A DNA stretch of 63,035 nt, taken from Sulfurospirillum sp. Its GTDB lineage: Bacteria; Campylobacterota; Campylobacteria; Campylobacterales; Sulfurospirillaceae. How positions within the stretch are numbered: the stretch's first letter is position 1; every line of letters starts with the position of its first letter. The DNA lies in contig JASFYR010000011.1 in assembly GCA_045047115.1 (NCBI GenBank), forward strand, positions 1-63,035, in the 5' to 3' direction. The notes under the pieces were generated by a model, which saw only the letters and a program-made list of their open reading frames with translations, was not told where the DNA came from and did no database searches. Shown here one piece after another: positions 1 through 39,586 of this stretch. The position numbers and the translations under genes were made by a program.

Positions 1-160
1 AACATTCTATGCAAAGCATAAGCTTTAGTGAGAGGAATTTAACTTGGGCTTTGCCTAAGTTAAAGGAGACATCAATATGAAACATTCTATGCAAAGCATT
101 AGCTTTAGTGAGAGAAATTTATTGGGGGCTCTGCTCCCAATAAAGGAGACAATTAAATGA
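1..160 (+). repeat. Two tandem 80 bp copies of an RBS-associated two-hairpin repeat element, upstream of secY (first copy truncated by window edge)
   Basis: 1-80 and 81-160 are near-identical (period exactly 80). Each has TATGC-AAA-GCAT(A/T), the linker AGCTTTAGTGAGA(G/A)GAA-type sequence, a ~12 bp hairpin and AAAGGAGACA..ATGA. Confidence 0.9.
77..160 (+). CDS. Putative 27 aa mini-ORF encoded by the repeat (MKHSMQSISFSERNLLGALLPIKETIK)
   Basis: AAGGAG at 63-68 precedes ATG 77; stop TGA 158-160 overlaps the secY ATG (ATGA). Translation not demonstrated. Confidence 0.45.
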   Translation: MKHSMQSISFSERNLLGALLPIKETIK

Positions 161-1419
161 GTAAAGATTTAACAAGAAAGATTTTGATTACCTTAGGTTT
201 CATCTTTGCATACAGGATATTGGCTTATGTGCCGGTACCTGGTGTAAATTTAGATGTTGTAAAAGAGTTTTTTGACTCAAACAGTTCAAATGCACTGGGC
301 ATGTTCAATATGTTTAGTGGAAATGCTGCAAAAAGACTGAGTATAATTTCACTCGGAATTATGCCTTATATCACTGCTTCAATTGTTATGGAACTTTTAG
401 CTGCAACATTCCCGACTCTTGGAAAAATGAAAAAAGAGAGAGACGGAATGACAAAGTATATGCAAATCATCCGTTATGCAACGATTGGTATCACTATAAT
501 CCAAGCCGTTGGTGTATCTATGGGTCTTGGAAGTTTGACAGGTCGTGGTGGCGAGAGTGCTGTTATGATTGATAAAACAACTTTTATGGCAATAGCTGCT
601 GCATCCATGCTGACAGGAACCATGCTTCTTATGTGGATTGGTGAACAAATCACTCAAAGAGGCATAGGAAATGGTATCAGCTTGATTATCTTCGCGGGTA
701 TTGTTTCAGGCATACCTCATGCGATAGGCGGAACTATAAACCTTGTAAACACAGGTGAGCTTAACTTTTTAGTTGTCATTGCCATACTGGTGGTGATACT
801 TGTGACTGTGGGGGTTATCATCTATGTAGAGATGGGTGAGAGAAGAGTGCCGATATCGTATTCGAGAAAAGTCATGATGCAAAATCAACATAAGAGAATC
901 ATGAACTATGTGCCTATAAAAGTGAACTTAAGCGGTGTGATTCCACCTATTTTTGCGAGTGCAATTTTGATGTTTCCATCAACTCTGCTTCAGGCAAGTA
1001 CAAATCCTATAGTGTTGAGTATAAAGGATTTTCTGAGTCCTGGCAGTTATGTATTTAATATTTTGACATTTTTATTTGTTATATTCTTTTCGTATTTTTA
1101 TGCATCAATTGTATTTAATGCAAAAGACATTTCAGAAAATTTAAAAAAACAAGGCGGATTTATACCTGGAGTACGACCTGGGATTCATACGGCCGATTTC
1201 TTAAATGATGTTGCAAGTCGTTTGACATTTTGGGGAGCAATCTACCTAGGACTGATTTCAACACTTCCTTGGGTTTTAGTAAAATTTATGGGAGTTCCTT
1301 TCTATTTTGGAGGAACGGCAGTTTTGATTGTTGTTCAAGTTGCACTAGATACTATGAGAAAGATAGAAGCTCAGATATATATGAGCAAATATGAAACTTT
1401 GAGTGCAGTAGGTTTATAA
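157..1419 (+). CDS. secY: Preprotein translocase subunit SecY
   Basis: Motifs LGIMPYITASI, GIGNGISLIIFAGI, IPGVRPG, FGGTAVLIVV; position before map-infA. Confidence 0.98.
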   Translation: MSKDLTRKILITLGFIFAYRILAYVPVPGVNLDVVKEFFDSNSSNALGMFNMFSGNAAKRLSIISLGIMPYITASIVMELLAATFPTLGKMKKERDGMTKYMQIIRYATIGITIIQAVGVSMGLGSLTGRGGESAVMIDKTTFMAIAAASMLTGTMLLMWIGEQITQRGIGNGISLIIFAGIVSGIPHAIGGTINLVNTGELNFLVVIAILVVILVTVGVIIYVEMGERRVPISYSRKVMMQNQHKRIMNYVPIKVNLSGVIPPIFASAILMFPSTLLQASTNPIVLSIKDFLSPGSYVFNILTFLFVIFFSYFYASIVFNAKDISENLKKQGGFIPGVRPGIHTADFLNDVASRLTFWGAIYLGLISTLPWVLVKFMGVPFYFGGTAVLIVVQVALDTMRKIEAQIYMSKYETLSAVGL

Positions 1420-2177
1420 TGGCTATAGCCCTTAAGAGCCAAAAAGATATACAAAAATTGTCTGTGGCAAATAAGATTGTAGCTAAAACACTAAACTACT
1501 TAGAAAAAGAAGTTCACCCGGGTATGTCTCTTTTAGAGATAAATGCTTTGGGTGAAGATTTTATACTAACTCACGGTGCAACCCCTGCTTTTAAAGGACT
1601 TTATGGATTTCCAGCTGGAGTTTGTACATCAGTAAACGAAGTTATAATTCATGGTATTCCAACTGAATATAAAATAAAAGAGGGTGACATACTGGGACTT
1701 GATATCGGAAGCAAGATAGATGGGTGGTATGGTGATGCTGCAATTACCATGGGAATCGGTGATATAACAAAAGAAGATGAAGAACTGATAGCCTGTTCCA
1801 AAGATGCACTTTATCATGCGATTAATTTTATAAAAGCCGGTATGCGATTTAAAGAACTTAGTTTTGAGCTTGAAAATTTTATACTCTCAAGAGGTTTCGT
1901 CCCTCTTAGAAGTTTTTGTGGACATGGAATAGGTAAAAAACCTCATGAAGAGCCGGAAATTCCAAACTATTTAGAAGGAAATAATCCAAAACAGGGTCCA
2001 AAGATAAAAAATGGTATGGTCTTTTGTTTGGAGCCTATGATATGCCAAAAAGAGAGCGAAGCAAAAATCTTGGATGATAAGTGGTCGGTAGTCTCAGGCG
2101 ACGGGCTAAGAGGAAGCCACTATGAGCACTGTGTGGCGATAATAAATAACAGAGCGGAAATACTCTCAGTAGAGTAG
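1419..2177 (+). CDS. map: Type I methionine aminopeptidase
   Basis: SVNEVIIHGIP, DG..GD, GHGIG..HEEP, EPM and HYEH metal-site motifs; secY-map-infA order. Confidence 0.97.
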   Translation: MAIALKSQKDIQKLSVANKIVAKTLNYLEKEVHPGMSLLEINALGEDFILTHGATPAFKGLYGFPAGVCTSVNEVIIHGIPTEYKIKEGDILGLDIGSKIDGWYGDAAITMGIGDITKEDEELIACSKDALYHAINFIKAGMRFKELSFELENFILSRGFVPLRSFCGHGIGKKPHEEPEIPNYLEGNNPKQGPKIKNGMVFCLEPMICQKESEAKILDDKWSVVSGDGLRGSHYEHCVAIINNRAEILSVE

Positions 2178-2195
2178 CGGCAAATCAAAGGCATA

Positions 2196-2366
2196 CAGAG
2201 CACCGGCCCGTGCTTTAGTAGAGCGTGAATTGACCAGAAATTCACTTTCTGGTTAAGATGACAGTTAAACAAAGTAATACGACCGCAAGGTTGTGCTTTA
2301 GTAGCGTGTGAATTGTTTAGGAATTCACTTCCTAAACAAGATGACAGTTAAACAGGAGAATATATG
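2196..2366 (+). repeat. Two tandem 83 bp structured units in the infA leader, distantly related to the 80 bp element
   Basis: GTGCTTTAGTAG (2210, 2293), GTGAATTG (2225, 2308) and GATGACAGTTAAACA (2257, 2340) repeat with period 83. The 11 bp stems differ in sequence but both pair and share the loop TTCAC. Confidence 0.85.
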
Positions 2367-2582
2367 GCGAAAGCAGATGTGATAGAGATAGACGGTAAAG
2401 TTATAGAGGCATTGCCAAACGCAACTTTTAAAGTTGAAGTTCAGAACAACCATGTGATTTTATGTCACATAGCTGGAAAGATGAGGATGCATTATATAAA
2501 GATAATGCCAGGAGACAAAGTTAAGGTAGAATTGACACCTTATAGCTTGGACAAAGGTAGAATTACATACCGATATAAGTAA
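2364..2582 (+). CDS. infA: Translation initiation factor IF-1
   Basis: 72 aa; [33 protein letters not shown]. Confidence 0.98.
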
Positions 2583-2601
2583 ATTATTAGCTTAATTTGG
2601 G

Positions 2602-2745
2602 TATAATTCATACCTTTTGTAAAACTGTGTGAAGAAGAATTGAAAAAAAACCACTATTTTTTCAATTGTTGGTCTAGTAAAACATCGCTAAACCTGTGAC
2701 AGTTTACTTGGTGATAGAGTGGAAAAAATAGACAAAGGCTGAAAA
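2602..2745 (+). promoter_or_regulatory. Promoter (-10 TATAAT) and structured 5' leader of the rpmJ-rpsM-rpsK-rpsD-rpoA-rplQ operon
   Basis: TATAAT 2602-2607; 11 bp stem 2638-2648/2657-2667; further helices 2672-2733. Confidence 0.55.
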
Positions 2746-2859
2746 ATGAAAGTACGACCTTCTGTAAAGAAGATGTGCGATAAATGCAAAGTGATCAAAC
2801 GAAAAGGTGTCGTTAGAGTCATTTGTGTAAATCCAAAACATAAACAGAGACAAGGATAA
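2746..2859 (+). CDS. rpmJ: 50S ribosomal protein L36 (missed by ORF track)
   Basis: Manual translation [37 protein letters not shown], 37 aa, Zn-ribbon form. Confidence 0.98.
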
Positions 2860-2861
2860 CC

Positions 2862-3230
2862 ATGGCAAGAATTGCAGGTGTAGACCTTCCAAACAAAAAA
2901 AGAGTAGAGTATGCTTTGACATATATCTACGGTGTAGGCTTGACCAGCTCTAGAGCGATATTAAATGCAACAGGCATTTCTTATGATAAAAGAGCAAGTG
3001 AGCTGAATGAAGAAGAGATAGCTTCTATCCGTAATGAATTACAAAAAAACTATGCAGTTGAGGGTGATTTAAGAAAAGATGTCGCTATGAATATAAAAGC
3101 TTTGATGGATATGGGAAGCTATAGAGGTCTAAGACATAGACGAGGACTTCCTGTTAGAGGTCAAAAAACAAAAACTAATGCGCGTACACGAAAAGGTAAG
3201 AAAAGAACCGTCGGCGCAAAAGCTAAATAG
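2862..3230 (+). CDS. rpsM: 30S ribosomal protein S13
   Basis: [25 protein letters not shown]. Confidence 0.98.
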
Positions 3231-3248
3231 AGTCTCAAAGGGAAACAG

Positions 3249-3641
3249 ATGGCAAAAAGAAAAGTAGCTAGAAAAAAAGTCGTTAAGAAAAATATTGCAA
3301 AAGGTATAGTTTTTATATCAGCAACATTCAATAACACTGTAGTGACTGTAACTGATGAGATGGGAAATGTTATTGCGTGGAGTAGTGCTGGTAGCCTTGG
3401 TTTTAAAGGCAGCAAAAAGTCAACTCCATATGCAGCTCAACAAGCAGTTGATGATGCGTTGGCAAAAGCAAAAGAACATGGAATCAAAGAGCTTGGTATA
3501 AAAGTTCAAGGTCCTGGTAGCGGTCGTGAAACTGCAGTCAAAAGTGTAGGTGCTTATGAGGGTATAAGAGTAACTTTTCTAAAAGATATAACTCCACTAC
3601 CACATAATGGTTGTAGGCCTCCAAAAAGAAGAAGAGTTTAA
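3249..3641 (+). CDS. rpsK: 30S ribosomal protein S11
   Basis: [29 protein letters not shown]. Confidence 0.98.
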
Positions 3642-3695
3642 TTCTGAAACAGAGTTATCTCAAAGTATTAATTATGTATAAAATTGGGAGAAAAG

Positions 3696-4322
3696 ATGGC
3701 AAGATATAGAGGACCAGTTGAAAAGCTTGAGAGAAGATTAGGTGTGAGCCTGGCTCTTAAAGGTGAGAGAAGACTTGCTGGCAAAAGTGCTCTTGATAAG
3801 AGACCTTATGCACCTGGACAACACGGTCAAAGAAGAACAAAAATCAGTGAATATGGATTGCAGTTAAGAGAGAAGCAAAAAGCTAAATTTATGTATGGTG
3901 TTTCTGAAAAACAGTTTAGAAGACTATTTTCAGATGCAAACAAATCAGAAGGAAATACAGGTACAAATCTTATCCTTTTGATAGAGAGAAGACTCGATAA
4001 TGTTGCATATCGTATGGGTTTTGCAACAACTAGAAGATTTGCTCGTCAGTTAGTAACGCACGGACACTTATTGGTAAACGGTAAAAAAGTTGACATTCCT
4101 TCATACAGAGTAAAAGCCGGAGATAAATTGGAGATTAGAGAGAAATCAAAAAACAATCCACAAATTGTGCGTGCACTTGAACTGACTGCACAAACAGGAA
4201 TTGTTCCGTGGGTTGACATAGATACAAACAAAGCTTTTGGAATTTTTACAAGAATTCCTGACCGTGAAGAAGTAGTAATACCGATTGAAGAGAGATTAAT
4301 CGTTGAGCTATACTCTAAATAA
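3696..4322 (+). CDS. rpsD: 30S ribosomal protein S4
   Basis: MARYRGP start (ATG 3696 after GGGAG), QLREKQK, IVELYSK. Confidence 0.98.
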
Positions 4323-4338
4323 GTAAGTAGGTAGCATT

Positions 4339-5352
4339 ATGAATAGTATAAAAACATCAGCATATATGCCAACAGAGATTGAAGTAGAAAACATCTCTAA
4401 AAATAAGATTAAAGTGATAGCATATCCATTTGAATCAGGTTTTGGAGTGACTTTGGCTCATCCCCTGAGAAGACTTCTGTTTAACTCAACTGTGGGATTT
4501 GCACCAATTGCCGTAAGAATTGAGGGAGTTACTCACGAATTTGACAGTATAAGAGGCATGTTGGAAGATGTCGCACTTTTTATCATAAATCTAAAAAATA
4601 TCCGCTTTAAAATCCTGGGTGATGAGGATAGAGTTATTTTAAACTACTCATTTAGCGGACCAAAAGAGATAAAAGGAAGTGATCTTAATAACGATCAAGT
4701 TGAGATTGTTACACCTGAAAACCACTTTTGTACTATAAATGAAGATGCGGAACTTAACTTTTCAGTTATAGTTGAAAAAGGCATAGGATATGTTCCTAGC
4801 GAAAATATCAGAGAAGATTTGGATGCGGATTATATCGCATTGGATGGTTTTTTTACACCTGTTAAAAAAGCTGTATATGATATAGAAAATGTACTTGTAG
4901 AAGATAATCCGAATTTTGAAAAGGTTATTTTCACAGTTGAAACTGATGGGCTTATTCCACCGTTGACTGCTTTTAAAAACTCTTTGGAAGCTATGTATTC
5001 ACAAATGTCTGTATTTAACGGTTTACTCGAAATCGAAGTAGGAAGCAATGATGAGAGTGAAATTGTCAGCGTTGAGTTTGGTAAGCTTTTACAAAGCATT
5101 GATGATCTAAATCTAAGTGCTCGTAGTTTTAACTGTTTGGATAGAGCTTCAATCAAGTATATCGGTGAATTAGCACTGATGGATGAAACCGAATTGAAAA
5201 ACTTAAAAAATCTTGGAAAAAAATCTCTTGAAGAGATAAGACAAGTGATGGAAGATCTGGAATTTCCTATAGGTTTTGAGTTCGAAGACGGAACAAAAGA
5301 TGTGCTAAGAGAAAAAATTCAAGATTTAAAATCTGAAACGAATGAGGGCTAA
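4339..5352 (+). CDS. rpoA: RNA polymerase subunit alpha
   Basis: [35 protein letters not shown]. Confidence 0.98.
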
Positions 5353-5354
5353 AA

Positions 5355-5705
5355 ATGAGACATAAGCATGGATATAGAAAGCTAGGTCGTACTTCTACAC
5401 ACAGAGGCGCGCTTCTTAAAAACCTGGCAATCGCAATTATAAAATATGAAAAAATTGAGACAACTCTACCTAAAGCAAAAGAGCTTAGGGGATTTATAGA
5501 GAAGTTAATCACAAGAGCAGGAAAAGGTGATTTTAATGCTCATAGAGCTGTATTTGCAGCTTTACAAGACAAAGAGTGTACTAAAAAACTAGTTGAAGAA
5601 ATAGCACCAAAGTATGTTGAAAGAAATGGTGGCTATACAAGAATAATCAAAACAAGAAATAGAAGAGGCGACGCTGCTTCTATGGCTTTTCTAGAATTAG
5701 TATAA
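5355..5705 (+). CDS. rplQ: 50S ribosomal protein L17
   Basis: [26 protein letters not shown]. Confidence 0.98.
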
Positions 5706-5714
5706 TTTTAATCA

Positions 5715-5737
5715 GGAGACTGTTATACGCAGTCTCC
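5715..5737. terminator. Hairpin between convergent rplQ and suhB
   Basis: GGAGACTG..CAGTCTCC stem; no strong U-tract. Confidence 0.5.
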
Positions 5738-5751
5738 AAACTTCAAAAACT

Positions 5752-6525
5752 TTAATTTTCTATATAGGATAATAACTCTTCGTGTATTTTACCGTTGGTT
5801 GCAACGATGCATCTGTCATTAAACATATCATATGGTAGATTGTAGCTATTTGTTACTTTGCCTCCAGCCTCTTCTAGAATTAGTATTCCAGCACTTACAT
5901 CCCAAGATTTTAGATTTATCTCATAATATCCCTCATAAATACCATTTGCCACCATGCAAAGGTCAATAGAGGCACTTCCTAGTCTTCTGATATCCTGGCA
6001 CTTTGGTAATATCATCTTTAGCTTTTTAATCACCCAGTTTAAATCATCTCTATTTGAGGCACTTGTATATGGAAAACCGGTTGATATAAGTGATGTTTGA
6101 AAATTTGCATCATTGCTTACTTCTAGTAATTTTCCATTTAAGTATGATCCGTTTCCCGCAATTGCAGTATAAAGCTCATTCAATATAGGGTTGTAAACGA
6201 TACCAATATATGCTTTTTTATTCTTATAAACACCAATAGAGATGGCGCAATGAGGTATTTTGTTCACAAAATTTGTAGTTCCGTCTATCGGGTCGATTAT
6301 TATTGAATTGCCAAATTCTATTTTACTGTTGTCTGACTCTTCGGCAATTATATTGTACTCCTCAAAAGAGGATGAAAGTTTGTCTATCAAAAATTTCTCT
6401 ATGCCTTTGTCATACTGTGTTACCAAGTCTTTTTTGCCTTTGAATTCGATAGATTTTTTATTATTATAACCCTTTTTGAAAATTACACCAGCTTCTTTAA
6501 CTATATCTATGAGTTTATCTATCAT
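5752..6525 (-). CDS. suhB: Inositol monophosphatase family protein
   Basis: DLVT..D, IIDPIDGTTNF, IRRLGSA, WDVSAG. Likely start ATG 6525; the extra 54 codons in the ORF track lie inside the inserted element. Confidence 0.88.
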   Translation of the reverse strand: MIDKLIDIVKEAGVIFKKGYNNKKSIEFKGKKDLVTQYDKGIEKFLIDKLSSSFEEYNIIAEESDNSKIEFGNSIIIDPIDGTTNFVNKIPHCAISIGVYKNKKAYIGIVYNPILNELYTAIAGNGSYLNGKLLEVSNDANFQTSLISTGFPYTSASNRDDLNWVIKKLKMILPKCQDIRRLGSASIDLCMVANGIYEGYYEINLKSWDVSAGILILEEAGGKVTNSYNLPYDMFNDRCIVATNGKIHEELLSYIEN

Positions 6526-6526
6526 T

Positions 6527-6800: not shown

Positions 6801-6912
6801 CTCCTCTATTTTACATATTATAACATACTCTCTTTTTGTATAGGTACTTATTAACTTTTTAGTAATACTATTTAGTTATAATTTTATTATATAAACAAAA
6901 TAAGGAGCAAAG

Positions 6913-26182: not shown

Positions 26183-26872
26183 ATAGATACTATAAATATT
26201 TCTACCATAGTCATTGTAGCATTTCTAGGAAGTTTGGGGCACTGCATAGGTATGTGTGGAGGTTTTATAGTAGCATACAGTAGCTCTAAGATAGATGCCA
26301 AATCTTCAAAATTCAGGCAGTTTGTCTCTCATGCTTTTTATAGTTTTGGCAGAATTACATCTTATATCTTCATAGGTATGGCTTCAGGAGCTTTGGGTAG
26401 TGTGGTTGCATTTTCTAAAACATCTATGGGGTATTTTTACTTTTTTATCGGTATATTTATGATTTTTATGGGTTTTTCTCTGATGGGGAAAATCAGATTT
26501 TTAACTTCGCTTGAATCTTCACTTGCCACAAACAACTTTGTAAAAAATATTTTCTCATTTTTAATTCACTCCAAGAGTATATACAGTTTTTACGGGCTAG
26601 GTATGTTAAATGGTTTCTTGCCTTGTGGATTGGTTTACTTCTTTGCTGTTTCCGCTGCTACTACCGGCTCGGTTTTTTGGGGTGGCTTTACGATGTTGAT
26701 TTTCGGGTTATCTACTATGCCGGCACTTTTGGGTTTTGGATATATAGTTGGATTTTTAAAAGGCAGCAGTTTTAGAGAGATAATGATAAAGGTAGCTTCT
26801 GTTGTAATTATCTTGTATGGAATATATATGTCGTATCTTGGATATATGTCAGTTGTCAGTTGTCTAAAATGA
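26183..26872 (+). CDS. DsbD_2/TauE-SafE-like membrane protein (cbb3 biogenesis-associated); probable ATA start
   Basis: HCIGMCGG and GFLPCGLVY. The first TM segment (IDTINISTIVIVAFLGS) lies upstream of the ORF-track TTG. Confidence 0.82.
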   Translation: MDTINISTIVIVAFLGSLGHCIGMCGGFIVAYSSSKIDAKSSKFRQFVSHAFYSFGRITSYIFIGMASGALGSVVAFSKTSMGYFYFFIGIFMIFMGFSLMGKIRFLTSLESSLATNNFVKNIFSFLIHSKSIYSFYGLGMLNGFLPCGLVYFFAVSAATTGSVFWGGFTMLIFGLSTMPALLGFGYIVGFLKGSSFREIMIKVASVVIILYGIYMSYLGYMSVVSCLK

Positions 26873-27966
26873 CTTTAGACCAATATAAAAATGCGATAGA
26901 ACAGAGTAATATAGTTTCTAAAACAGATATAAACGGTATAATAACTTTTGTAAATGATGAGTTTTGTAAGATTTTTGAATACACAAGAGAGGAGCTCATA
27001 GGTAAAAATCATAATATCGTTAGACATCCTGATGTCCCAAAAGAGATATTTAAGAGTCTATGGGATACGATTTTGGCAAAAAAGACATATAAAGCGATGG
27101 TGAAAAACCTCTCAAAATACGGCAAAACTCTCTATGTAAATACAACCGTGATACCTATCTTAGATAAAAGAGGAGAAATAGAAGAGTTTATCGCCATAAG
27201 ATACGATATGACTGAGAGTGTAGAGTTGGCACGCCAAATGCAGGAAAAAGACAGATTTCTTTTTCAACAGTCCAGGCTTGCTGCAATGGGAGAGATGATA
27301 GGAAATATCGCACATCAATGGCGTCAGCCTCTAAATGAGCTAGGTATCACTGTTTATCAAATGAAAAAATTTTTTTTATCTGATAAAAGAGAGAAAGAAT
27401 TTTTGCAGAGTTATGATCACTCTAAAGATGTGATAAAAAAAATGTCGAGCACTATAGAGGATTTTAGGAATTTTTTTAATCCGAATAAACAAAAAGAGAT
27501 ATTTCTTTTAAGAGATGCGATTGATGAGCTTTTAAGGATGATGCAAGGAAGTATACAGAGGCACTCTTTGCATATAGAGGCAGAAAACAAGAAAAAGATT
27601 TATATATATGGGTTTTTTAATGAATTTAATCAAGTGATGTTAAATCTTATAAATAACTCAAAAGATGCTTTTAATCAAAGAAAAATTAAAAAAAGAGAGA
27701 TTAAAATTGCAGTTGATATAGATGAAAAGCAAAATGCAGTTATCATATACAGTGATAATGCTAAAGGTATAGATGAAAATATAATAGATAAGATTTTTGA
27801 TCCATATTTTACAACCAAACATTCAAGTGAGGGGACAGGATTGGGATTATACATGAGTGAAATGATAATTCAAAAAAGTATGAGCGGAAGTATAAAAGCC
27901 TATAATAACAAAAATGGTGCAACATTTGAGATAAAGATACCTGCACTAAAGGAGACAGTAAAATGA
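26869..27966 (+). CDS. Cytoplasmic PAS-domain sensor histidine kinase
   Basis: PAS (SKTD..G.ITFVN..F, HNIVRHPD), H-box IAHQWRQPL, DPYFTTK, GTGLGL. ATG 26869 overlaps the upstream stop. Confidence 0.93.
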   Translation: MTLDQYKNAIEQSNIVSKTDINGIITFVNDEFCKIFEYTREELIGKNHNIVRHPDVPKEIFKSLWDTILAKKTYKAMVKNLSKYGKTLYVNTTVIPILDKRGEIEEFIAIRYDMTESVELARQMQEKDRFLFQQSRLAAMGEMIGNIAHQWRQPLNELGITVYQMKKFFLSDKREKEFLQSYDHSKDVIKKMSSTIEDFRNFFNPNKQKEIFLLRDAIDELLRMMQGSIQRHSLHIEAENKKKIYIYGFFNEFNQVMLNLINNSKDAFNQRKIKKREIKIAVDIDEKQNAVIIYSDNAKGIDENIIDKIFDPYFTTKHSSEGTGLGLYMSEMIIQKSMSGSIKAYNNKNGATFEIKIPALKETVK

Positions 27967-28046
27967 AATATTCTATGCGAAGCATAAGCAATAGTCACGA
28001 GGAATTTAACTTGGGCTTTGCTCAAGTCAAAGGAGACAATAAAATG
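27963..28046 (+). repeat. Single 81 bp copy of the RBS-associated two-hairpin element between kinase and regulator
   Basis: ATGAAATATTCTATGCGAAGCATAAGC..GAGGAATTTAACTTGGGCTTTGCTCAAGTCAAAGGAGACAATAAAATG closely matches 1-80. Confidence 0.9.
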
Positions 28047-28715
28047 AATAATTTAAAAACACTTACGGTTTTATTTGTAGAAGATGAAAGCAATATAAGA
28101 ACAGCGCTGAAAAAAGCTATAAGTGATGAATTTAAAAACTTTATTTTGGCGAGAGACGGTAGTGAGGGTTTGAAAAAATTTCAAAAGTATAAGCCTGATA
28201 TCGTCATAACTGATATAATGATGCCTATAATTGATGGTTTGGAAATGTCAAGGGAGATTAAGAAGATTTCACGGGATACGCCAATTGTGGTATTGAGTGC
28301 TTTTGATGAAAAAGAGAGACTCATGAGTGCCATAAATATAGGTATAGATAAGTATTTGATGAAGCCCATTGACGCAGATGAGCTTTTGAGTACGCTTAAA
28401 TATATTTCAAAAGATATGCTTTCTCTCGGTGATACAATTGACCTTGGAAATGGATATATTTTTGATAAAATTGCAAGAGTTTTGATTAAGGATGGCAAGA
28501 CCATACCTCTTACTAAAAAAGAACTTCTCTTTATATCAATTTTGGTAAAAAATCTTGGTGCCTATGTGCTTCATGAAGAGTTAAAAAAGTATGTATGGAC
28601 AAATAAAAATGTCAGTGATGCAGCCATCAGAACATTTGTAAAAAGAGTCAGAGGAAAAACTGATAAAAACTTTATAGAAAATATTCCGGGGCTTGGATAC
28701 AAAATTAGTCTGTAA
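28044..28715 (+). CDS. OmpR-family response regulator
   Basis: FVEDE, ITDIMMP..DG, KP, winged-helix C-terminus (RTFVKRVR, GLGYK). The 27 upstream in-frame codons are repeat-derived. Confidence 0.93.
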   Translation: MNNLKTLTVLFVEDESNIRTALKKAISDEFKNFILARDGSEGLKKFQKYKPDIVITDIMMPIIDGLEMSREIKKISRDTPIVVLSAFDEKERLMSAINIGIDKYLMKPIDADELLSTLKYISKDMLSLGDTIDLGNGYIFDKIARVLIKDGKTIPLTKKELLFISILVKNLGAYVLHEELKKYVWTNKNVSDAAIRTFVKRVRGKTDKNFIENIPGLGYKISL

Positions 28716-32079: not shown

Positions 32080-32082
32080 GAT

Positions 32083-32295: not shown

Positions 32296-32304
32296 GGGGA
32301 TATT

Positions 32305-33011: not shown

Positions 33012-33508
33012 TGGGTGAAAAAAAAGATAGAAATTATTGGCCTCATGGCATTTTAGCTCTCATAATAGCAGTTGTGATAGGCGGAATACTTAGTGTAAAA
33101 ACAGCTTTGGAAAATCCTGTCCAGGAGTCAACATATTTTATGAAAACTTACCAAAGTGTTGAAGACAATGCTTATGAGTTGGAAAAACAAAAAGATGAGT
33201 TTGATAAAAATTTTCAGATAATTTACAGTATAGCAAGGTTTAAGATAGGAAAAAATAAGTTTGCAATCAAAATATTAGATAAAACAGACCATAAACCTGT
33301 AAATAATGCAGATGTAGAAATGCTATTAACAAGATATGAGACTAATACTCTTAATAAAAAACTTAAACCTCTAAAAGTTATAAATGGAACATATATCTTT
33401 AAAGACTTGGATATACAAAAATTAGGTCGCTGGAAAGTGCTGACAACTACAAAGATAGACAAATACAAAGGCTTTAACTCTTACGAAGTAAATGCTACTA
33501 GGAAATGA
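33011..33508 (+). CDS. FixH/CcoH-like protein
   Basis: YWPHGI TM anchor, NPV, YQ.V; Ig-like C-terminus; cco context. Confidence 0.75.
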   Translation: MGEKKDRNYWPHGILALIIAVVIGGILSVKTALENPVQESTYFMKTYQSVEDNAYELEKQKDEFDKNFQIIYSIARFKIGKNKFAIKILDKTDHKPVNNADVEMLLTRYETNTLNKKLKPLKVINGTYIFKDLDIQKLGRWKVLTTTKIDKYKGFNSYEVNATRK

Positions 33509-35847
33509 CAAGAATATTTTCAACTAATAGGGGTGTTAGGGATTTTTACGCACTCTATAAGGGGGAAAGCGCCCTTTTGCCAAAAGCGATCACAATAGCA
33601 GAGTTTGAATCCAAAACAATAATTGTAAAAGATAGAACATTTATTGATAGTGACACTAGAATGCTGCTTTTAAGAGGAGCTATAGATTTCAAGGAATTTA
33701 AGAGACTTCAGTTTAGCTCTGAATTTATGACATTTTTAAGTCACAGTGAGTATATTTTTAGGTTTTTTGATGAGCTGGCAAGTGAACAAATAGATATAAA
33801 TGAACTGAAAAAATATGATATGTATGCGCTTTATGATGAGCATCTTGAGGCATTGGAGATACTAAGAGATAGGTATTTAGAACTTCTTGACAAAAATGCA
33901 TTTGTAGATAGGATAAATTTGGCAAATCATTACAGCATCAATGAAGACTATCTTAAAAATCTTGAAGCACTTAAATTTAGAGTTGATGGCTTTTTGACTA
34001 AATTTGAAACTACTCTTTTTGAAAAGTGCTCGAAAATCATACCAATTTATATGGACATTGAGATAAACCGGTATAATAAAAAAACAAAATCAATCTTTGA
34101 AAATTTTGGCTTTAAATTAGAAGAGAACAAAGAGTACAGTCTCAATCTAAGTGACAAAAGTATTATTACATGTGGAAATACTTCAAATAAGAGTATAAAG
34201 GTGGATGTGAAAGTGTTCAACTCAAGACTTTCACAGATAGGAGCTGTCTTTTCATTCATTGCTGAGTTTATCAAAGAAGGAATTGCTCCTGAAGATATAG
34301 CAGTAGTTTTGCCAGATGAGAGCTTAAGCACTTTTTTAAAAGAGCTTGATATGCATAATAATTTTAACTTTGCCATGGGATTTTCTCTTAAAAACTCTAT
34401 GGTTTATAAAAGACTAGAAGCAGTCTTACTCTATCTTGGTAACAAAAATGATGAAGAAAAAGCAAGAGTTGAGAGATTAAAGATTCCTAAAGATCTACTT
34501 GAAAACATAAAAAATCTTTATAAAAAAAAGCAAGATACTGATACCCCGATTAAAATCATAAATGATTTTTTGGATTTAGATGAAAATGAGAGCAATGCAG
34601 AAGAGTTTAAGGAGGAGATTTTTAGATTTTCAAAGCTTGTCTCAAATCTAAAAGAGCTCACATTGGAACAGATCCTTAGACTCTTTTTGCAGAGATTAAA
34701 AAAAAGAAGCAAGGATGATGCAAGAGGTGGAAAGATAACAGTTATGGGACTTTTGGAGACTAGAGGAAGTAATTTTAAGGGTGTTATTGTGCCAGATTTT
34801 AGTGACGACTTTGTGCCAAAACGAAGCCAAAAAGATCTTTTTTTAAATACCCAAATTAGAAAAAATATAGGACTTCCTACAAAAGATGATAGAGAAAACT
34901 TGCAAAAATACTACTACTATAAATTATTTTCCTCTGCGAAAAAAGCAGCAATCTGCACAGTTGCAAATGAGCATGTTATGCCATCTCGTTTTTTAGATGA
35001 GTTGGAACTAAACTACAATTCAAATATCGACACGAGAATCTTCAATACTCTTTTATTTGACAAAAGAGAAATCTTTATACCAAAAGCAGAGACGATAACT
35101 GGTATAAAGTATGATTTGCACCAAAGCCCACTGAGTGCTACAAAACTAGAGACTCTTTTGGTTTGTAAAAGAAAATTTTACTATAAATATATAAAAAGAC
35201 TAAAAGAACCTCAAAATATACTCGCTGAGTCAAATGCCAAAATCGGGCTCAAATTGCATAAGGCACTAGAGAGGGTCTTTTTTAAAGGTATGGCTTTAGA
35301 TGATGAAAAAAAAGTGCTGGAGCGACTAAGAGGAGAGTTGATACAAGAACATACAAAAGAACTAGAAGAGTTTGAGCTTGAAGGATGGTTGGTGCTTATG
35401 AAAGAGTTTGTTTTGCGGGAGAAAAGAAGATACGAAAGCGGTTTTAGAATTTTTGAAACGGAATTGGAGCTTCGTTCCGGATTTGAAGGCTTTGAAATAA
35501 AAGGCAAGCTGGATAGAATAGATATAAAAGATTCTAAACTCTTCGTCATAGACTATAAGAGTGGAGACACAAACTCTCTGTTAAAGCAAAAAATAGAAAA
35601 TCTTACAAATTTTCAACTCCCATTTTACTATCTTTTAGCAAAACAACTAGGAAATGTTGACGGTGTATTTTATTATGATTTAAAAGAAGCTGTGTTAAAA
35701 AAAGAGATTATGATAGAAGAAAAAATAGAAAAACTTAAATTAATATTAAATACCTTCAGTGAGCCTATAAAGACATTTGATCTATGTGAAAATCATAGCA
35801 ATTGTCGTTACTGCCCATATAAAAAATTATGTTTAAGAGAAAATTAA
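33505..35847 (+). CDS. addB: AddB-like inactivated helicase/PD-(D/E)XK nuclease
   Basis: VMGLLETRG, SRFL, KGKLDRID, IDYKSG; Fe-S Cys (C...C..CPY..LC). Confidence 0.9.
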   Translation: MTRIFSTNRGVRDFYALYKGESALLPKAITIAEFESKTIIVKDRTFIDSDTRMLLLRGAIDFKEFKRLQFSSEFMTFLSHSEYIFRFFDELASEQIDINELKKYDMYALYDEHLEALEILRDRYLELLDKNAFVDRINLANHYSINEDYLKNLEALKFRVDGFLTKFETTLFEKCSKIIPIYMDIEINRYNKKTKSIFENFGFKLEENKEYSLNLSDKSIITCGNTSNKSIKVDVKVFNSRLSQIGAVFSFIAEFIKEGIAPEDIAVVLPDESLSTFLKELDMHNNFNFAMGFSLKNSMVYKRLEAVLLYLGNKNDEEKARVERLKIPKDLLENIKNLYKKKQDTDTPIKIINDFLDLDENESNAEEFKEEIFRFSKLVSNLKELTLEQILRLFLQRLKKRSKDDARGGKITVMGLLETRGSNFKGVIVPDFSDDFVPKRSQKDLFLNTQIRKNIGLPTKDDRENLQKYYYYKLFSSAKKAAICTVANEHVMPSRFLDELELNYNSNIDTRIFNTLLFDKREIFIPKAETITGIKYDLHQSPLSATKLETLLVCKRKFYYKYIKRLKEPQNILAESNAKIGLKLHKALERVFFKGMALDDEKKVLERLRGELIQEHTKELEEFELEGWLVLMKEFVLREKRRYESGFRIFETELELRSGFEGFEIKGKLDRIDIKDSKLFVIDYKSGDTNSLLKQKIENLTNFQLPFYYLLAKQLGNVDGVFYYDLKEAVLKKEIMIEEKIEKLKLILNTFSEPIKTFDLCENHSNCRYCPYKKLCLREN

Positions 35848-35848
35848 G

Positions 35849-38563
35849 ATGATAAAAAATCTGGCACTTGAAGCTAGTGCAGGAAGTGGAAAGACATTTG
35901 CTCTTAGTGTAAGATATATTTCTTTGCTGATTCTCGGTTCACCTCCTTCTGAAATTTTAACACTTACTTTTACAAATAAAGCAGCGCTTGAGATGAAGAG
36001 GAGAATTTTTGATACCTTAAAAAATCTTGAAACAGCGGATGAATTGGTTGAAATCATAAAAATTACCTCTAAAAGCAAGGATGAGATTCTCTCTTTGAAA
36101 CCAAAAGTTCTAAGAGAGTTTTTGAGGAGTGATTTGAAGATATCTACGATAGACTCTTTTTTCTCCTCAATTTTGAGAAAGTTCTCATTTAATATTGGTT
36201 TAATGCCGGATTTTAAGCTTGAAGAGACTCTTTTGAGTGATGACTTGATAGAGAGATTTTTGAAGATTTGCAAAAGTGGGTTACTATATAAATCATTGAT
36301 TCTGTTTTCGCTGAATGAGAAGAAAAAACTAGCAGATATATTTTCTCTTTTTGCTTTGCTTTTTGAAAAACACAGCGAGATTGATTTTGAAAATTTTGCC
36401 AAACAAAACAGAGAATATCCAAATGAAAAAGAAATACTTGTTCTAGTGAGTGATATAAAACAAAAATTTCAAAACAGAGGATTGCCGAAAAATGCTCTTA
36501 AGACCTTTGAAGTTCAAAGTGTTAAAGAGTTGTTGGAGAAGAAATTTTTACAAAGAGAAGATCTTGCTTACTGGACATATAAAAAATATGTGAATTGTGA
36601 GTTAAATGATCTGCATAATGAGCTCAAAGATAGATTAAGTAGATATGTAAAAGCAAAAGAGGGCTATGTTATAAATCAGCTTTCAAAACAATATATTGCA
36701 TTTTGTGGTGCAATGGATATAGATTCAAAACAAAATTCGACCCTTAGCTTTTCTCAAATGACAAACAGGCTATTTGACATACTAAGAGACGATATAAACA
36801 GAGACTTTTTATACTTTAGGCTGGATGGAAGTTTTAAACATCTTTTGATAGATGAATTTCAAGATACAAATATAGTCCAGTATAAAATCCTGGAGCCTTT
36901 TATGCAAGAGATTGTTTCCGGAGTTGGCGTCAGTGAGGACAGAACGCTCTTTTTGGTCGGTGATACCAAACAGTCTATATATAGGTTTAGAGGAGGAGCT
37001 AAAGAGCTTTTCTCTTATGCTGCAACTTCACTAAATCTTGAGATTGGAGTTTTAGGGGTAAACTACAGAAGCTCTTCCAGTGTTGTGGATTTTATTAATA
37101 AAACATTTAGCGATAAAATCAGTGGATATAGAAATCAAGAGATCAAAAAAGAGGCAAATACGGGGTATGTTGCTGTTGTTATAGACGACGATATAGAAAA
37201 AAATCTTATATCAAATTTGCAAAATCTTTTAAGTCTCGGTATTTTGCAAAGTGATATAGCTGTTTTGTGCTACACAAACAAAGAAGCTTTGATGCTAAAA
37301 GAGTTGATAGAAGATAAGATATATGGAGCTAAAGCAAGTCTGGAGGCAAAGAGAAAACTAATAGAGGTGCCTGTCATATCTGGAATTATTGATTTTGTAT
37401 TTTATCTGTATTTTAAGGATGAGTTGTATCTGGAAAATTTTTGTGTAAAATGTGGTAAAAGTTATAAGGAAGATGAGCATCTTTTTGATTTGGGAGCTAG
37501 TGTAGATACTCTGGTGGCAAGAATTATTCGATATTTTAATCTTTTTGACGGCAGGGATGATGTGCTTCTTTTTATCGAAAGTTGTGCAGGATTTCGTGAT
37601 GTAGAAGAGTTTTTGTTTAACTATCAAAATATATCTCAAAATTCTTTAAACAGTGAGAGTGAAGGAATACGAGTTTTGACTATTCACAAATCAAAAGGTT
37701 TGGAATTTTCAAATGTATTTGTTGTTGATAGACTCAAAAGAGCCAGAAGTGGTGCAGGTACTTTTATATTTGATTATGATGATATTCAATTGCAAAACAT
37801 ATATCTAAAGGTAAAAAATAGAGAATATTTTGATGACGAATATAAAAAAGCAAAAGTCAAAGAGGGCATAAAAGAGTATGAGGATGCACTCAATACGCAG
37901 TATGTCGCATTTACAAGAGCAAAAAATAACCTTTTTATACTATCCAAAGAGAAAAGTTCTGCTTTTTCAAATCTTGATCTTTGTGAATTGCAAAAAGGTG
38001 AAGTATATGTTCAAAATGAAAAAAAATCTAAGGATAGAGCTGATATTTCTTGTTTTAAGCCTAACAGATATGGAATCCAAGAGGTCGCAAAAGCTGAACT
38101 TTCCAAAGTAAAAACAGATGACTTTATGGCAGTAGAGTTTGGTTTGGCACTTCATTATATGCTTGAGATGCTGGGTGGGTTTGAGCCGAGATATATAGGC
38201 AATGCCTACGAGAGCCTAAGAAACAGGTATAAAGGTGTTTTAGATGAGAGTGATTTGGAAGATATTAAAAAAAGAGTGCTAAAATTACTTAAAAACAGTG
38301 AGTTTAGAAAAATCATACAAGGCGCAAAGTTGAGTAAGGAACAGCCTGTGTATTATAGGCAGGAAAGAAAACAACTGGATCTTTTGTTGGAATTTAGTGA
38401 TAAAGTTGTAGTGGTTGACTACAAGAGTTCGGAGTTGTTGCAATCTTCACATGTAAAACAGGTTGGTCTTTATAAAAAAGCCCTAAAAGAGATATATGCC
38501 AAAGAGTGCGAGGCATATCTGTGCTATCTGAAAAGAGATGACATTAAGTTGGTAAAGGTTTGA
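35849..38563 (+). CDS. addA: AddA (RecB-like) helicase-nuclease
   Basis: ASAGSGKT, TFTNKAA, DEFQDT, TIHKSKGLEF, YVAFTRA, DYKS. Confidence 0.93.
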   Translation: MIKNLALEASAGSGKTFALSVRYISLLILGSPPSEILTLTFTNKAALEMKRRIFDTLKNLETADELVEIIKITSKSKDEILSLKPKVLREFLRSDLKISTIDSFFSSILRKFSFNIGLMPDFKLEETLLSDDLIERFLKICKSGLLYKSLILFSLNEKKKLADIFSLFALLFEKHSEIDFENFAKQNREYPNEKEILVLVSDIKQKFQNRGLPKNALKTFEVQSVKELLEKKFLQREDLAYWTYKKYVNCELNDLHNELKDRLSRYVKAKEGYVINQLSKQYIAFCGAMDIDSKQNSTLSFSQMTNRLFDILRDDINRDFLYFRLDGSFKHLLIDEFQDTNIVQYKILEPFMQEIVSGVGVSEDRTLFLVGDTKQSIYRFRGGAKELFSYAATSLNLEIGVLGVNYRSSSSVVDFINKTFSDKISGYRNQEIKKEANTGYVAVVIDDDIEKNLISNLQNLLSLGILQSDIAVLCYTNKEALMLKELIEDKIYGAKASLEAKRKLIEVPVISGIIDFVFYLYFKDELYLENFCVKCGKSYKEDEHLFDLGASVDTLVARIIRYFNLFDGRDDVLLFIESCAGFRDVEEFLFNYQNISQNSLNSESEGIRVLTIHKSKGLEFSNVFVVDRLKRARSGAGTFIFDYDDIQLQNIYLKVKNREYFDDEYKKAKVKEGIKEYEDALNTQYVAFTRAKNNLFILSKEKSSAFSNLDLCELQKGEVYVQNEKKSKDRADISCFKPNRYGIQEVAKAELSKVKTDDFMAVEFGLALHYMLEMLGGFEPRYIGNAYESLRNRYKGVLDESDLEDIKKRVLKLLKNSEFRKIIQGAKLSKEQPVYYRQERKQLDLLLEFSDKVVVVDYKSSELLQSSHVKQVGLYKKALKEIYAKECEAYLCYLKRDDIKLVKV

Positions 38564-38564
38564 G

Positions 38565-38987
38565 ATGAAAAGTGTTTTGATTTTTATAGTGGTTTTATTG
38601 GTGGCGATTCAGTTTATACCTGCAAAGATAACAAATCCCAAGAGTGATAAAAACTTGGAGATAAAAGCCCCACAAGCAGTGATAAAGATACTTAAAAATT
38701 CGTGTTATGATTGTCACTCAAACGAGGTAAAAATTCCTTGGTACGCAAGCATTGCACCGGCTTCGTTTTTTATGAAAAGACATGTTGATTTGGGGCGCCA
38801 ATGGGTAAATTTCTCTATTTGGGAGAGCTACACCCCAAAACAAAAAGATAAAAAACTCGAAGAGATATTTAAATCTGTCTATCATGCGATGCCGTTGCCA
38901 AGCTACCTAAAACTACACAAAAGGGCAAATTTATCCCAAAAACAAAAACAAATCATTAGGGAGTGGACAGGTAAAATACCATACTAA
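38565..38987 (+). CDS. Heme-binding domain (monoheme c) protein
   Basis: SCYDCHSN, PWY, NFS.W, MP..Y...H. Confidence 0.85.
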   Translation: MKSVLIFIVVLLVAIQFIPAKITNPKSDKNLEIKAPQAVIKILKNSCYDCHSNEVKIPWYASIAPASFFMKRHVDLGRQWVNFSIWESYTPKQKDKKLEEIFKSVYHAMPLPSYLKLHKRANLSQKQKQIIREWTGKIPY

Positions 38988-39060
38988 GTTGTAGATTATT
39001 ATTGTGCAATAAGATATAATGCAGTGAGTAAAGTCAGATAATATCTCAGAGGTAAACTAT

Positions 39061-39270
39061 ATGGATATCAGCGTATTTTTGATAGCTTTTTTGTTTTTTA
39101 TACCACTATATTTGATAGGAATTGTTTCTGACAGTAAACCTTTGACAATTTTTTTAGCGATAATAGCAGTATTGATAGCTATGTTTTTTGGTGGTGAAAA
39201 ATATATGTATTTTGATGTTATGGCTATAGGTATCGCTATCTTTTTTGCATTTTTAAAAATAGATAGATAA
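39061..39270 (+). CDS. Small hydrophobic hypothetical protein
   Basis: GAGG RBS; 69 aa with ~3 hydrophobic segments; TATAAT upstream. Confidence 0.55.
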   Translation: MDISVFLIAFLFFIPLYLIGIVSDSKPLTIFLAIIAVLIAMFFGGEKYMYFDVMAIGIAIFFAFLKIDR

Positions 39271-39398
39271 AGTCAAGGGTAAAATAATCTTATATTTTAC
39301 TGAAATTCAGCTATATAAAAGTTTTATTTAACTACAATCACACTTCGATAAAAAGATATGAAAACAATCTAACAAAAAGCATAAGCATCAGGGTGAGA

Positions 39399-39586
39399 TA
39401 AACACTCTGCATAAAGTGCAAGCACAAGTTCGAGGAATTTTTGATGGGCTTTCAAGGAAGCATTGCTAACGCGACCGCATTTGCTTGCTTTGCCCCGATA
39501 AGATGTAAACACTCTGCATAAAGTGCAAGCTTTAGTGAGAGGAATTTTTGATGGGCTTTGCCCATAAAAAAGGAGAAATTAAATGA
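39399..39586 (+). repeat. Two copies of the RBS-associated two-hairpin element in the rplM leader (first copy carries a 39 nt insert)
   Basis: TAAACACTCTGCATAAAGTGCAAGC at 39399 and 39506, and GAGGAATTTTTGATGGGCTTT in both. The second has AGCTTTAGTGAGAGGAATTT identical to position 21-40. Confidence 0.88.

Follow-up and report, generated by a model that had tools for sequence, protein, structure and literature searches.

A dispersed two-hairpin repeat at translation starts in Sulfurospirillum and other Campylobacterales, and its possible role as a start cassette

A two-hairpin repeat at translation starts

What kind of sequence is a unit of about 80 nucleotides (nt) with two hairpins, which ends at the start codons of secY, rplM and a response-regulator gene, and shortly before that of infA, in one stretch of DNA? 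The question is raised by positions 1 to 63,035 of contig JASFYR010000011.1 from Sulfurospirillum sp. (assembly GCA_045047115.1), and this whole stretch of 63,035 nt is called the window below. The original prediction, made from the letters of the window, had described seven such places as copies of a dispersed structured repeat, which lies in sense orientation, ends at starts, has stems that change and keep pairing, and was not recognized as any of several known small structured repeats. We re-read the window with a profile and a covariance model. All seven stretches were real copies, the hairpin sequences had been quoted correctly, and the further points of the description were borne out in the whole genome, as given below. 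Among the clusters of copies that could be judged, 58 of 58 were in sense orientation, 57 of them directly upstream of a protein-coding start and one inside rnpB, the gene for RNase P RNA. The reading that we favour, and that we believe about as much as we doubt, is that of a structured, transcribed start cassette, which would supply a Shine-Dalgarno sequence (SD) and an AUG, would partly couple translation, and would spread by amplification and by recombination between start regions.

The window forms the beginning of contig C11 in the source genome (G000; 2.14 Mb, 41 contigs, 35% G+C, 100% complete), and this contig start falls within a unit. A profile was seeded with four window copies and iterated over the whole genome, where it converged at 80 matches (E<=1e-3). 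A covariance model built on 59 full copies gave 79 matches in the genome (E<=0.01). Neither of these genome scans found a copy inside the window beyond those already named. The 80 matches group into 68 clusters, 12 of which are tandem pairs as assembled. Since a copy is found less than 150 nt away from 19 of the 82 contig ends, the arrays break the assembly and the true copy number is higher. The whole 63-kb window gave no match to any family of Rfam 15 at the gathering score, despite the ribosomal-protein operons located there, and scans of the copies at E<=10 returned noise only, with no ribozyme family.

A unit extends approximately from ATG to ATG, with a length of 80, 81 or 83 nt. The consensus consists of an A-rich part with TTCT, hairpin 1 (P1), AGCTTYAGT followed by 3-7 nt and GAA, hairpin 2 (P2) in the frame TTT-P2-AAA, G-R-N-GA(C/A)A, an A/T-rich spacer and ATG. 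In RNA letters, the conserved parts are a linker, GCUUYAGU…GAA, and a tail, GRNGAC, which starts at the foot of P2. Four subtypes differ in these two parts:

Subtype i: linker GTCGCGAGGAA, tail GGGGACA
Subtype ii: linker GT-GAGAGGAA, tail GGAGA(C/A)A
Subtype iii: linker GTAGAGCGTGAA, tail GATGACAGTTAAA
Subtype iv: linker GAGATGAA, tail GAAGA(C/A)A

In subtypes i and ii, the tail is the sole SD before the ATG. Subtype iii, and mostly subtype iv too, has a separate SD 15-30 nt after the unit, and the subtypes in which the tail is not an SD (iii/iv; infA and others) account for about 15 clusters. The generic SD region of the genome is AAAGGAGAAA, and GGGGACAATAAAATG is nearly restricted to the element. 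The assembly gave no match to a conserved motif of 14 nt from near the 3' end of 16S rRNA, and the rRNA operon is probably absent from it, having stayed unassembled.

The copies and copy-derived parts in the window are as follows:

1 to 79, + strand: copy 1 (subtype ii), truncated by the contig start at its 5' end; hairpin 1 TATGC-AAA-GCATA, linker AGCTTTAGTGAGAGGAA, hairpin 2 at 38-64, SD GGAG; its ATG at 77-79 overlaps a TGA at 78-80
80 to 159, + strand: copy 2 (subtype ii); its ATG at 157-159 is the start of secY (157-1419)
2189 to 2275, + strand: subtype iii copy, first of a tandem pair, GCTTTAGTAGAGCGTGAATT - hairpin 2 - AAGATGACAGTTAAA
2272 to 2358, + strand: subtype iii copy, second of the pair, followed by a separate SD, AGGAG, and the infA ATG at 2364
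27946 to 27965, + strand: element-type SD-spacer-ATG CTAAAGGAGACAGTAAAATG, the left flank of copy 3 and a 20-nt direct repeat of its 3' end
27966 to 28046, + strand: copy 3 (81 nt); its ATG at 28044 is the start of the response regulator
39358 to 39399, + strand: degenerate partial copy with ATG, A-rich 5' end, 3' half of hairpin 1 and the linker-like GGTGAGAT
39400 to 39505, + strand: copy 4, with an insertion of about 39 nt (39453-39491) in the loop of hairpin 2 and the 3' end GATAAGATG
39506 to 39585, + strand: copy 5 (subtype ii), intact; its ATG at 39583 is the start of rplM

Copies 1 and 2 lie head to tail over 1-159. The ATG at 77-79 begins a 27-codon frame across copy 2, which stops at the TGA at 158-160 in an ATGA overlap with the secY start. 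The tandem pair at 2189-2358 ends 6 nt before the region of AGGAG and the infA ATG (2364). The left flank of copy 3, 27946-27965, encodes the final codons of the upstream histidine-kinase open reading frame (ORF; 26860-27966), whose stop TGA overlaps the ATG. The partial copy at 39358-39399 was found, by eye against copy 1, to be without hairpin 2.

Conservation of the fold

The stems of both hairpins vary in sequence yet stay paired. When 65 copies were aligned with the model as a guide, 89.3% of the cells were paired, a value reached by none of 500 column shuffles, and pairing falls to 46-58% when the partners are slid by 1-3 columns. In G000, P2 is paired in 96.6% of cells, and compensatory changes are found in 9 of its 11 pairs. 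MAFFT misaligns P1, which has loops of 3 or 4 nt, and P1 was hence folded copy by copy. A hairpin of at least 4 base pairs was obtained at the same place in 61 of the 65 copies, with many different stems and in two architectures, a TTCT-stem type and an ACAGAGC...GCTCGTG type. Sixty-six copies from other species gave the same picture (91.3% of cells paired; 97.8% in P2), and most of them end in ATG or GTG.

P2 contains 42 G·U or U·G cells as compared with 8 A·C or C·A cells. This excess indicates that the fold is selected on the sense strand, and it fits RNA. The fold of the sense strand was more stable than that of shuffled sequences (z -2.3 to -3.7), and that of the antisense strand was so to a lesser degree (z -2.0 to -2.2). 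As judged from the pairing, the fold belongs to the sense strand and is most likely RNA.

Covarying stems with invariant joining regions are the pattern of an aptamer. The repeat could thus be a cis-regulatory RNA aptamer or operator, of which the linker and tail bind one trans factor, so that the genes behind it form one post-transcriptional regulon and the copying is secondary; we consider this unlikely, but far from negligible. With the same reserve, the factor would be a protein, a small molecule, the ribosome or another RNA, and perhaps a third helix, GU(N)/(N)GAC, would take part. An additional covarying column pair outside the helices, the base after AGT with the base before GAC, offers a lead towards such a helix. 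It was counted as C:G 26, A:T 15, T:G 2, gap:A 15 and C:A 2 in G000, and as C:G 18 and gap:A 43 in the other species; the short helix would fit, although this covariation comes from three subfamilies only and could be descent. It also speaks against an aptamer that no Rfam family corresponds to the unit, and that the 100%-complete genome has no match to the L7Ae family (PF01248) of kink-turn binders.

Several other contacts were considered and rejected. The pairings AAAG (P1 loop) with CUUU (linker) and 5' UUCU with GGAA are preferred by RNAfold in some copies, but are impossible with 4-nt loops or with the ACAGAGC-type P1, and show no covariation. A pseudoknot of subtype iii between GTGAATT in the linker and AATTCAC in the P2 loop fails because 6 of the 16 such copies have another loop. 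Kissing of the P1 and P2 loops (AAA/UUU) shows no covariation. A kink-turn with GAA opposite GGA fits, by eye, subtypes ii and iv only, and there without a regular C-stem.

Placement and target genes

A same-strand ORF of at least 60 amino acids (aa) starts just downstream of 56 of the 68 clusters, and no copy in the genome is antisense to the adjoining gene. An ATG stands 1-5 nt past the model end in 39 of these 56 clusters, in which the SD is in the tail, as compared with 2.4% of 20,000 random sites (6-nt slot, ATG-led ORF). It stands 6-35 nt past the model end in 12 clusters, which belong to subtypes iii/iv and have an SD of their own, and 63 and 95 nt past it in two; in the remaining three, the scripted start call fell on an ATG inside a GATGAC motif. 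The looser test for any start within 110 nt is passed by 47% of random sites, and is therefore worthless alone. The other 12 clusters comprise ten at contig edges that point outward, one before a 49-aa ORF, and the one inside rnpB. This 49-aa ORF (MKIKPYSQNAYTPVPSAFTKFRRNCVIWQFVRFIVINIKMTVLILKSHH) is located at C9:68691-68840 of G000, 3' of a tandem pair of units.

The proteins encoded behind these 56 clusters have unrelated functions. They include SecY, IF-1 (infA), L13 (rplM), L11 (rplK), L7/L12 (rplL), S7 (rpsG), RpoC and RpoZ; DnaK, ClpB, FlgE, FlgG, FliQ, PII (glnB) and two response regulators; and GuaA, LeuB, SerA, GlmM, SoxX, SoxZ, ArgF, PurE, PurS, HemN, NadC, ThrB, PdxA, Nfo and others. 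The many machinery genes (rplK, rplL, rplM, rpsG, infA, secY, rpoC, rpoZ, dnaK, clpB) would suit the regulon expected of an aptamer. On the other hand, a regulon would not be expected to mix these with sulfur oxidation, flagella, the synthesis of purines, amino acids and cofactors, and two response regulators.

Many copies are operon-internal (rplO-secY, rpoB-rpoC, rplJ-rplL, map-infA). No conserved -10-like box was seen by eye in the consensus, and the TACAAT box of rplM lies upstream of the inserted units and is present also in the relatives in which this site is empty. The operon-internal positions, together with the conserved unpaired core between the helices, would also suit an RNA processing signal or a small self-cleaving ribozyme, which cuts polycistronic mRNA at the 5' edge of the unit and leaves a hairpin-protected message bearing an SD. 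Some ribozyme classes are multi-copy. We regard a cutting unit as very improbable, because the Rfam scans gave no ribozyme match even at E<=10, and because a cleaving copy in the essential RNase P RNA would be self-destructive.

A leader frame in part of the copies

An ATG abuts the 5' end of the unit in 22 of 65 copies. In 11 of the 22, a frame of 27 to 31 codons runs through the unit and stops in an ATGA at the gene start; the spacing is 80 or 83 nt (27 or 28 codons) in ten of them, and 92 nt, with the ATG further upstream, in one. Among the rest, two are in frame with the gene (81 nt), three stop 4-7 nt before the start, and three read ATG-TAA. This coupling frame is stop-free in 31 of 45 bodies of subtypes i, ii and iv, against 11 of 45 for each other frame.

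An SD-ATG followed by an open frame to the next start in 11 copies, and the more frequent openness of this frame, might be taken as signs of tiny protein genes, that is, leader peptides of 27-28 aa with conservation at the protein level. The observations disfavour this idea, and we give it next to no credence. The peptide is not conserved where the stems covary, as the compensatory changes rewrite it (FCGIHFRK, LTWALPKL and LLGALLPI at the same positions). Two thirds of the copies have no start, the 81-nt copies continue in frame into the gene, no such frame exists in subtype iii, and one copy lies in rnpB.

If the unit is a start cassette, an upstream SD-ATG abutting it would open a frame of 27 or 28 codons, and the stop in ATGA would allow termination-reinitiation coupling, like the leader of a bicistronic design. 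In the synthetic bicistronic design ascribed to Mutalik et al. (2013), a first SD and ATG reportedly open a short leader frame, a second SD lies near its end, and its stop overlaps the gene start; the translating ribosome is said to unwind structure and to pass to the start of the gene. The layout is alike, but that design is engineered, whereas here the full arrangement is found in 11 of 65 copies only and the coupling is putative.

Old and young sites among the relatives

The model was run on relatives, with up to the best 109 candidates scored per genome. All 24 genomes searched from the same family carry the element: 13 of 13 other genomes of the genus with 21 to at least 106 matches each, and 11 of 11 further genomes of the family with 2-51 matches each. 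In other families of the order, 4 of 16 genomes were positive, with one match each. The linker pattern was also scanned over one genome per prokaryote species, and 80 loci among the matches listed were checked with the model, which confirmed 66 matches in them. Among the matches listed, the confirmed loci are labelled Sulfurimonas, Sulfurovum, Sulfurospirillum, Arcobacter, Campylobacteraceae, Campylobacterales, Campylobacterota or no taxon, and none of the pattern-only matches in Serratia, Klebsiella, cyanobacteria and others was confirmed. Many of the Campylobacterales with the family are metagenome-assembled genomes. Full-text searches of the literature turned up no report of such an element in Sulfurimonas, Sulfurovum or further Campylobacterota.

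Some sites are old. With gene names given by N-terminal likeness, argF, rnpB and dnaK are sites in common between G000 and genus g3; genus g4 has a flagellar hook-type gene (flgE) and rnpB in common with G000, and an accC copy that G000 does not have; the infA site is common to G000 and another family. The orthologous copies at argF and rpoZ differ in both stems and retain the fold. Old copies kept across genera with compensatory change (the infA, argF, dnaK and flgE leaders and RNase P P12) indicate that the fold is under selection and not merely tolerated. The retention of the infA, argF, dnaK, flgE and rnpB sites across genera or families, and of the argF and rpoZ folds with different stems, would also be expected of an aptamer.

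Other sites are young or variable. The junction between the histidine kinase and the response regulator (copy 3) carries the unit in G000 and G003, whose relatives G012, G009, G007 and G013 have an empty site. The rplM leader is filled in G000 only, and is empty in G003, G009, G007 and G013; in the empty relatives the whole block 39358-39582 is absent, and TACAAT is followed by about 35 nt and then the ATG. In the complete genome G013, the 21 matches are spread over about 11 sites, of which rpoZ, flgE and rplL are in common with G000. Its sites at rpe, rplJ (a four-unit array), a napG-like gene (four units) and a gene for 163 aa (four units) are empty in G000. The units of the four-unit arrays scored alike in the profile search. 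These empty orthologous sites, together with the four found only in G013, indicate that the element proliferates. Such differences in presence between close species at essential genes, the near-identical tandem arrays of up to four units, the partial and interrupted copies, and the copy in RNase P RNA all argue against the aptamer.

Two of the four-unit arrays of G013, at C1:945050-945348 and 526768-527073, have units that are identical by eye. In the first of them, the units are about 71 nt long and the usual tail is missing its 3' side, suggesting a recent local amplification of a truncated unit.

A unit inside RNase P RNA

The copy at C9:162663-162733 sits within a full match to RNaseP_bact_a (L089 329-728, 252 bits), and the family matches around the copy, not to the copy itself. 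A unit inside rnpB was found also in G015, G016, G020 and G023, and the alignment of G023 shows it as an insertion at the tip of helix P12. In G000, this unit is closed by a perfect stem, CAUUUAAUG/CAUUAAAUG, in which the spacer-AUG of the unit itself forms the 3' strand. The unit thus folds autonomously as a module, is tolerated in a non-coding RNA and is kept there in three genera. Short heptanucleotide tandem repeats without a defined fold are said, after Vioque (1997), to be inserted in P12 of cyanobacterial RNase P RNA. Both cases are of a genome-wide repeat tolerated in the dispensable P12 helix; unlike in cyanobacteria, a whole two-hairpin unit replaces the P12 tip here, in three genera.

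Junctions with the flanking sequence

A direct repeat of 20 nt, AAAGGAGACAnTAAAATGAA (AAAGGAGACA(G/A)TAAAATGAA), stands on either side of copy 3. The left repeat encodes the last codons of the kinase and its TGA; where the site is empty, the kinase of the relatives ends earlier and is followed by a generic GGAGAA..ATG. In the whole genome there are 35 occurrences of the element-type motif GACA-spacer-ATG. Of these, 20 form the 3' ends of copies, 6 adjoin the left side of a copy that has no full copy before it, and 9 are located elsewhere. In several left flanks, e.g., AGAAGGACAGTAAAATG, a native SD seems to be joined to a spacer of the element. At rplM, the left break comes after the native ...GATAT, where arrays read ...AATAT and, past the break, G. 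The flanking direct repeats vary from 20 nt at the response regulator and about 14 nt at hemN to the ATG only elsewhere. The apparent target-site duplications at hemN and rplM, which involve coding bases, may equally be the A-rich 5' end of the element or a decayed partial copy.

From these junctions we infer that units may have been copied from an array into a start region through crossovers in the microhomology of SD, spacer and ATG. One part of the original prediction, a tiny mobile element, is consistent with the gain and loss and the empty sites between relatives; its other part, insertion targeted to start junctions, agrees less well with the junctions, which resemble microhomology recombination more than targeted transposition.

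Candidate mobilizing enzymes

A non-autonomous DNA transposon would be a different route of spread. It would be of the kind of the repetitive extragenic palindromes (REPs) with their REP-associated tyrosine transposases (RAYTs), or of the palindrome-associated transposable elements of IS200/IS605, with single-stranded DNA hairpins recognized in trans by a Y1 HUH transposase. A strand-specific insertion 3' of ...AATG would give the sense orientation, the placement at starts and the arrays alike. We judge this reading improbable, somewhat more so than the aptamer. The unit does have two subterminal hairpins and a single orientation, its boundary lies after an ATG in 22 of 65 copies and after AATG even in rnpB, and, as the unit ends in ATG, self-targeting would build arrays. 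G000 also has three PF01797 genes, one IS200/605 TnpA and two RAYT-like genes. One of the repeat arrays beside the RAYT-like genes (GAGTTAAAGGGGACAG) contains the 12-mer TTAAAGGGGACA, which some subtype-i copies have at their 3' end; this array is found nowhere else in the genome.

Against this, the stems are highly diverse in one genome, unlike ends recognized by a transposase, and the G·U excess of P2 fits RNA pairing, not DNA. The left flanks are element-type SDs of variable length with no fixed target, and the copies are old (median identity 61% between loci within G000; 93-99% in the best pairs). The hallmarks of miniature inverted-repeat transposable elements (MITEs) were not found in the element: its ends (A-rich TTCT... 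and ...TAAAATG) are not inverted copies, and there is no target duplication of fixed length. The RAYT-like genes, at C3:14315-14959 and C7:19806-20141 (215 and 262 aa), lie between inverted arrays made of short repeats rich in G, GAGTTAAAGGGGACAG and GGGGTCAGGG, respectively; the element itself was not found beside either gene, the flanks being GGGGACAG or GGGGTCAGGG arrays. Orthologues of the C3 gene (>=85%) were present in only 2 of 40 relatives. The commoner, 262-aa type of RAYT is widespread in the order, including five families where no element was found, and was not found with that query in the complete genome G013, which has 21 copies of the element.

Across the genomes, no transposase tracks the copy number of the element, and the Y1 genes do not. 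G000 has no match to reverse transcriptase (PF00078), and its one IS110 transposase adjoins no copy. The IS200/IS605-type TnpA (138 aa) lies at C20:19553-19921 (L132) with a TnpB-like frame downstream that is apparently interrupted. Its flanks, compared by eye, have a hairpin unrelated to those of the element, and the stems of the element are not conserved.

A proposed start cassette

The start cassette that we favour would work as follows. In subtypes i and ii, the tail would serve as the SD, followed by the A/U-rich spacer and the AUG of the downstream gene. P2 would hold this SD unpaired in a fixed context just 3' of a stable helix, and the initiation would in this way be insulated from the upstream sequence. 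The hairpins may also shield mRNA ends after intercistronic processing. Spread would proceed by local tandem amplification and, in rare cases, by copying into the start regions of other genes via the common homology AAAGGAG..TAAAATGA, through template switching or gene conversion from an array. Copying through start-region homology would account for the sense orientation at starts and for the element-type SD-ATG on the left, and would need no enzyme of its own.

Several observations weigh against this proposal. No fresh copying event was caught, the median identity between loci being 61%. A decayed upstream copy would leave the same remnants in the left flank, and the recombination route is deduced from few junctions between species that are 70-90% identical. 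About two thirds of the copies are without an abutting upstream ATG, and many have ATAG or TAA there, so that coupling can apply only to a subset. The openness of the coupling frame is suggestive, but partly forced by the conserved linker (the TAG in CTTTAGT closes one other frame) and by shared descent. The function at the RNA level and the use of the SD are read from the logic of the sequence. The 17-nt linker and the tail are conserved even where the tail is not an SD (subtypes iii/iv, about 15 clusters) and in RNase P RNA. A pure SD-holder model does not explain this conservation, which hints at a bound factor or a tertiary fold.

The invariant linker and the ancient conserved sites leave a factor-binding regulatory RNA as the main rival. 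The cis-regulatory module, which had been offered as the alternative to a mobile element, is kept alive by the linker and by the cross-genus sites with compensatory change, though we would not expect it to prevail. The claim that the repeat supplies its own ribosome-binding site (RBS) applies to the main subtypes, which have SD and ATG, and not to the diverged subtype (about 15 clusters) with its separate SD. A role in translation for every copy does not agree with the copy in RNase P RNA, where translation is irrelevant.

As a tentative extension, which we think doubtful though slightly less so than the aptamer, the cassette may be self-propagating without an enzyme, would use the similarity of start regions as its integration site, and would persist by giving standardized, insulated and partly ribosome-coupled initiation. 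If this is true, up to about 3-5% of the genes in some Campylobacterales would start on one exchangeable module, and one common factor would possibly read the invariant linker. If the start-cassette reading holds, the element would be a natural counterpart of engineered translation-initiation parts, with one small fold reused before ribosomal, chaperone, flagellar, sulfur-oxidation and biosynthetic genes in an order of vent and sediment bacteria. The element would also be a clean case for the spread of a sequence without a dedicated enzyme. The hundreds of naturally varied copies with compensatory changes are a resource for an RNA junction motif.

Comparison with known repeats

REPs and the bacterial interspersed mosaic elements formed of them, with RAYTs, and the palindrome-associated elements of IS200/IS605 are likewise short, structured, high-copy and assembly-breaking, and Y1 genes are present here too. 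However, REPs are single imperfect palindromes, well conserved per genome, in both orientations and flanking their own RAYT, whereas the element has diverse stems and always follows the orientation of its gene, and the repeats beside the RAYT-like genes are different ones.

A closer precedent is REP2 of Neisseria. In those parts of Delihas (2011, PMC3184786) that deal with it, REP2 is described as a repeat of 120-150 bp with 26 copies, no terminal inverted repeats and two RNA stem-loops, and, as the contact-regulated element, with a promoter, RBS and ATG fused to ORFs (Parkhill 2000 and Morelle 2003, via PMC3184786). The Borrelia repeats IR-A and IR-B (Dunn 1994, via PMC3184786) are presented there as similar to REP2, and the origin and spread of both are left open in that account.

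As far as these descriptions go, REP2 and our element are both dispersed and intergenic, without terminal inverted repeats, have two stem-loops, adjoin ORFs and carry an RBS and ATG. Sense placement upstream of ORFs, two stem-loops, and an RBS with ATG (the last not in subtypes iii/iv) were all found for the element. REP2, as described, differs by its length of 120-150 bp, its approximately 26 copies, the included promoter, a co-regulated gene set that it marks, and its betaproteobacterial host. The element differs from that description by its length of about 80 nt, 80 to more than 100 copies, tandem arrays, operon-internal positions, a putative external promoter at rplM, a subtype that has no SD of its own and a copy in RNase P RNA. 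Borrelia IR-A/IR-B are, in the same source, also upstream-of-gene repeats with two stem-loops, RBS and ATG, and differ in being low-copy, plasmid-borne and promoter-containing, in an unrelated phylum, with neither covariation nor arrays mentioned in those passages.

The likeness is an analogy drawn from descriptions, not sequences. By this analogy, the element would be the same kind of object as REP2 and the Borrelia repeats, in a third phylum, and would extend the little-studied class of repeats with RBS and ATG to it. REP2 and IR-A/IR-B are a precedent close in concept, which the original prediction had not named.

Annotation and neighbouring sequence

The repeat calls for care in annotation and assembly: about a quarter of the contig ends lie in it, starts and N-termini are easily mis-called, and upstream genes gain C-terminal codons encoded by the element. 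In the window, the histidine-kinase ORF (26860-27966) ends in element-derived codons (…LKETVK*), and an alternative response-regulator ORF, 27963-28715, starts 27 codons further upstream, in frame across the 81-nt unit. This kinase end and this alternative regulator start are likely sources of mis-annotated ends.

The rplM leader of G012 (C60, L104 about 1330-1470) contains, between a promoter-like box and the ATG, an unrelated insert of about 130 nt with long terminal inverted repeats, AGAATCAAACCTCTTTTAAAACTATTTC ... GAAATAGTTTTAAAAGAGGTTTGATCT, which is MITE-like. The rplM leader apparently receives repeats of more than one kind.

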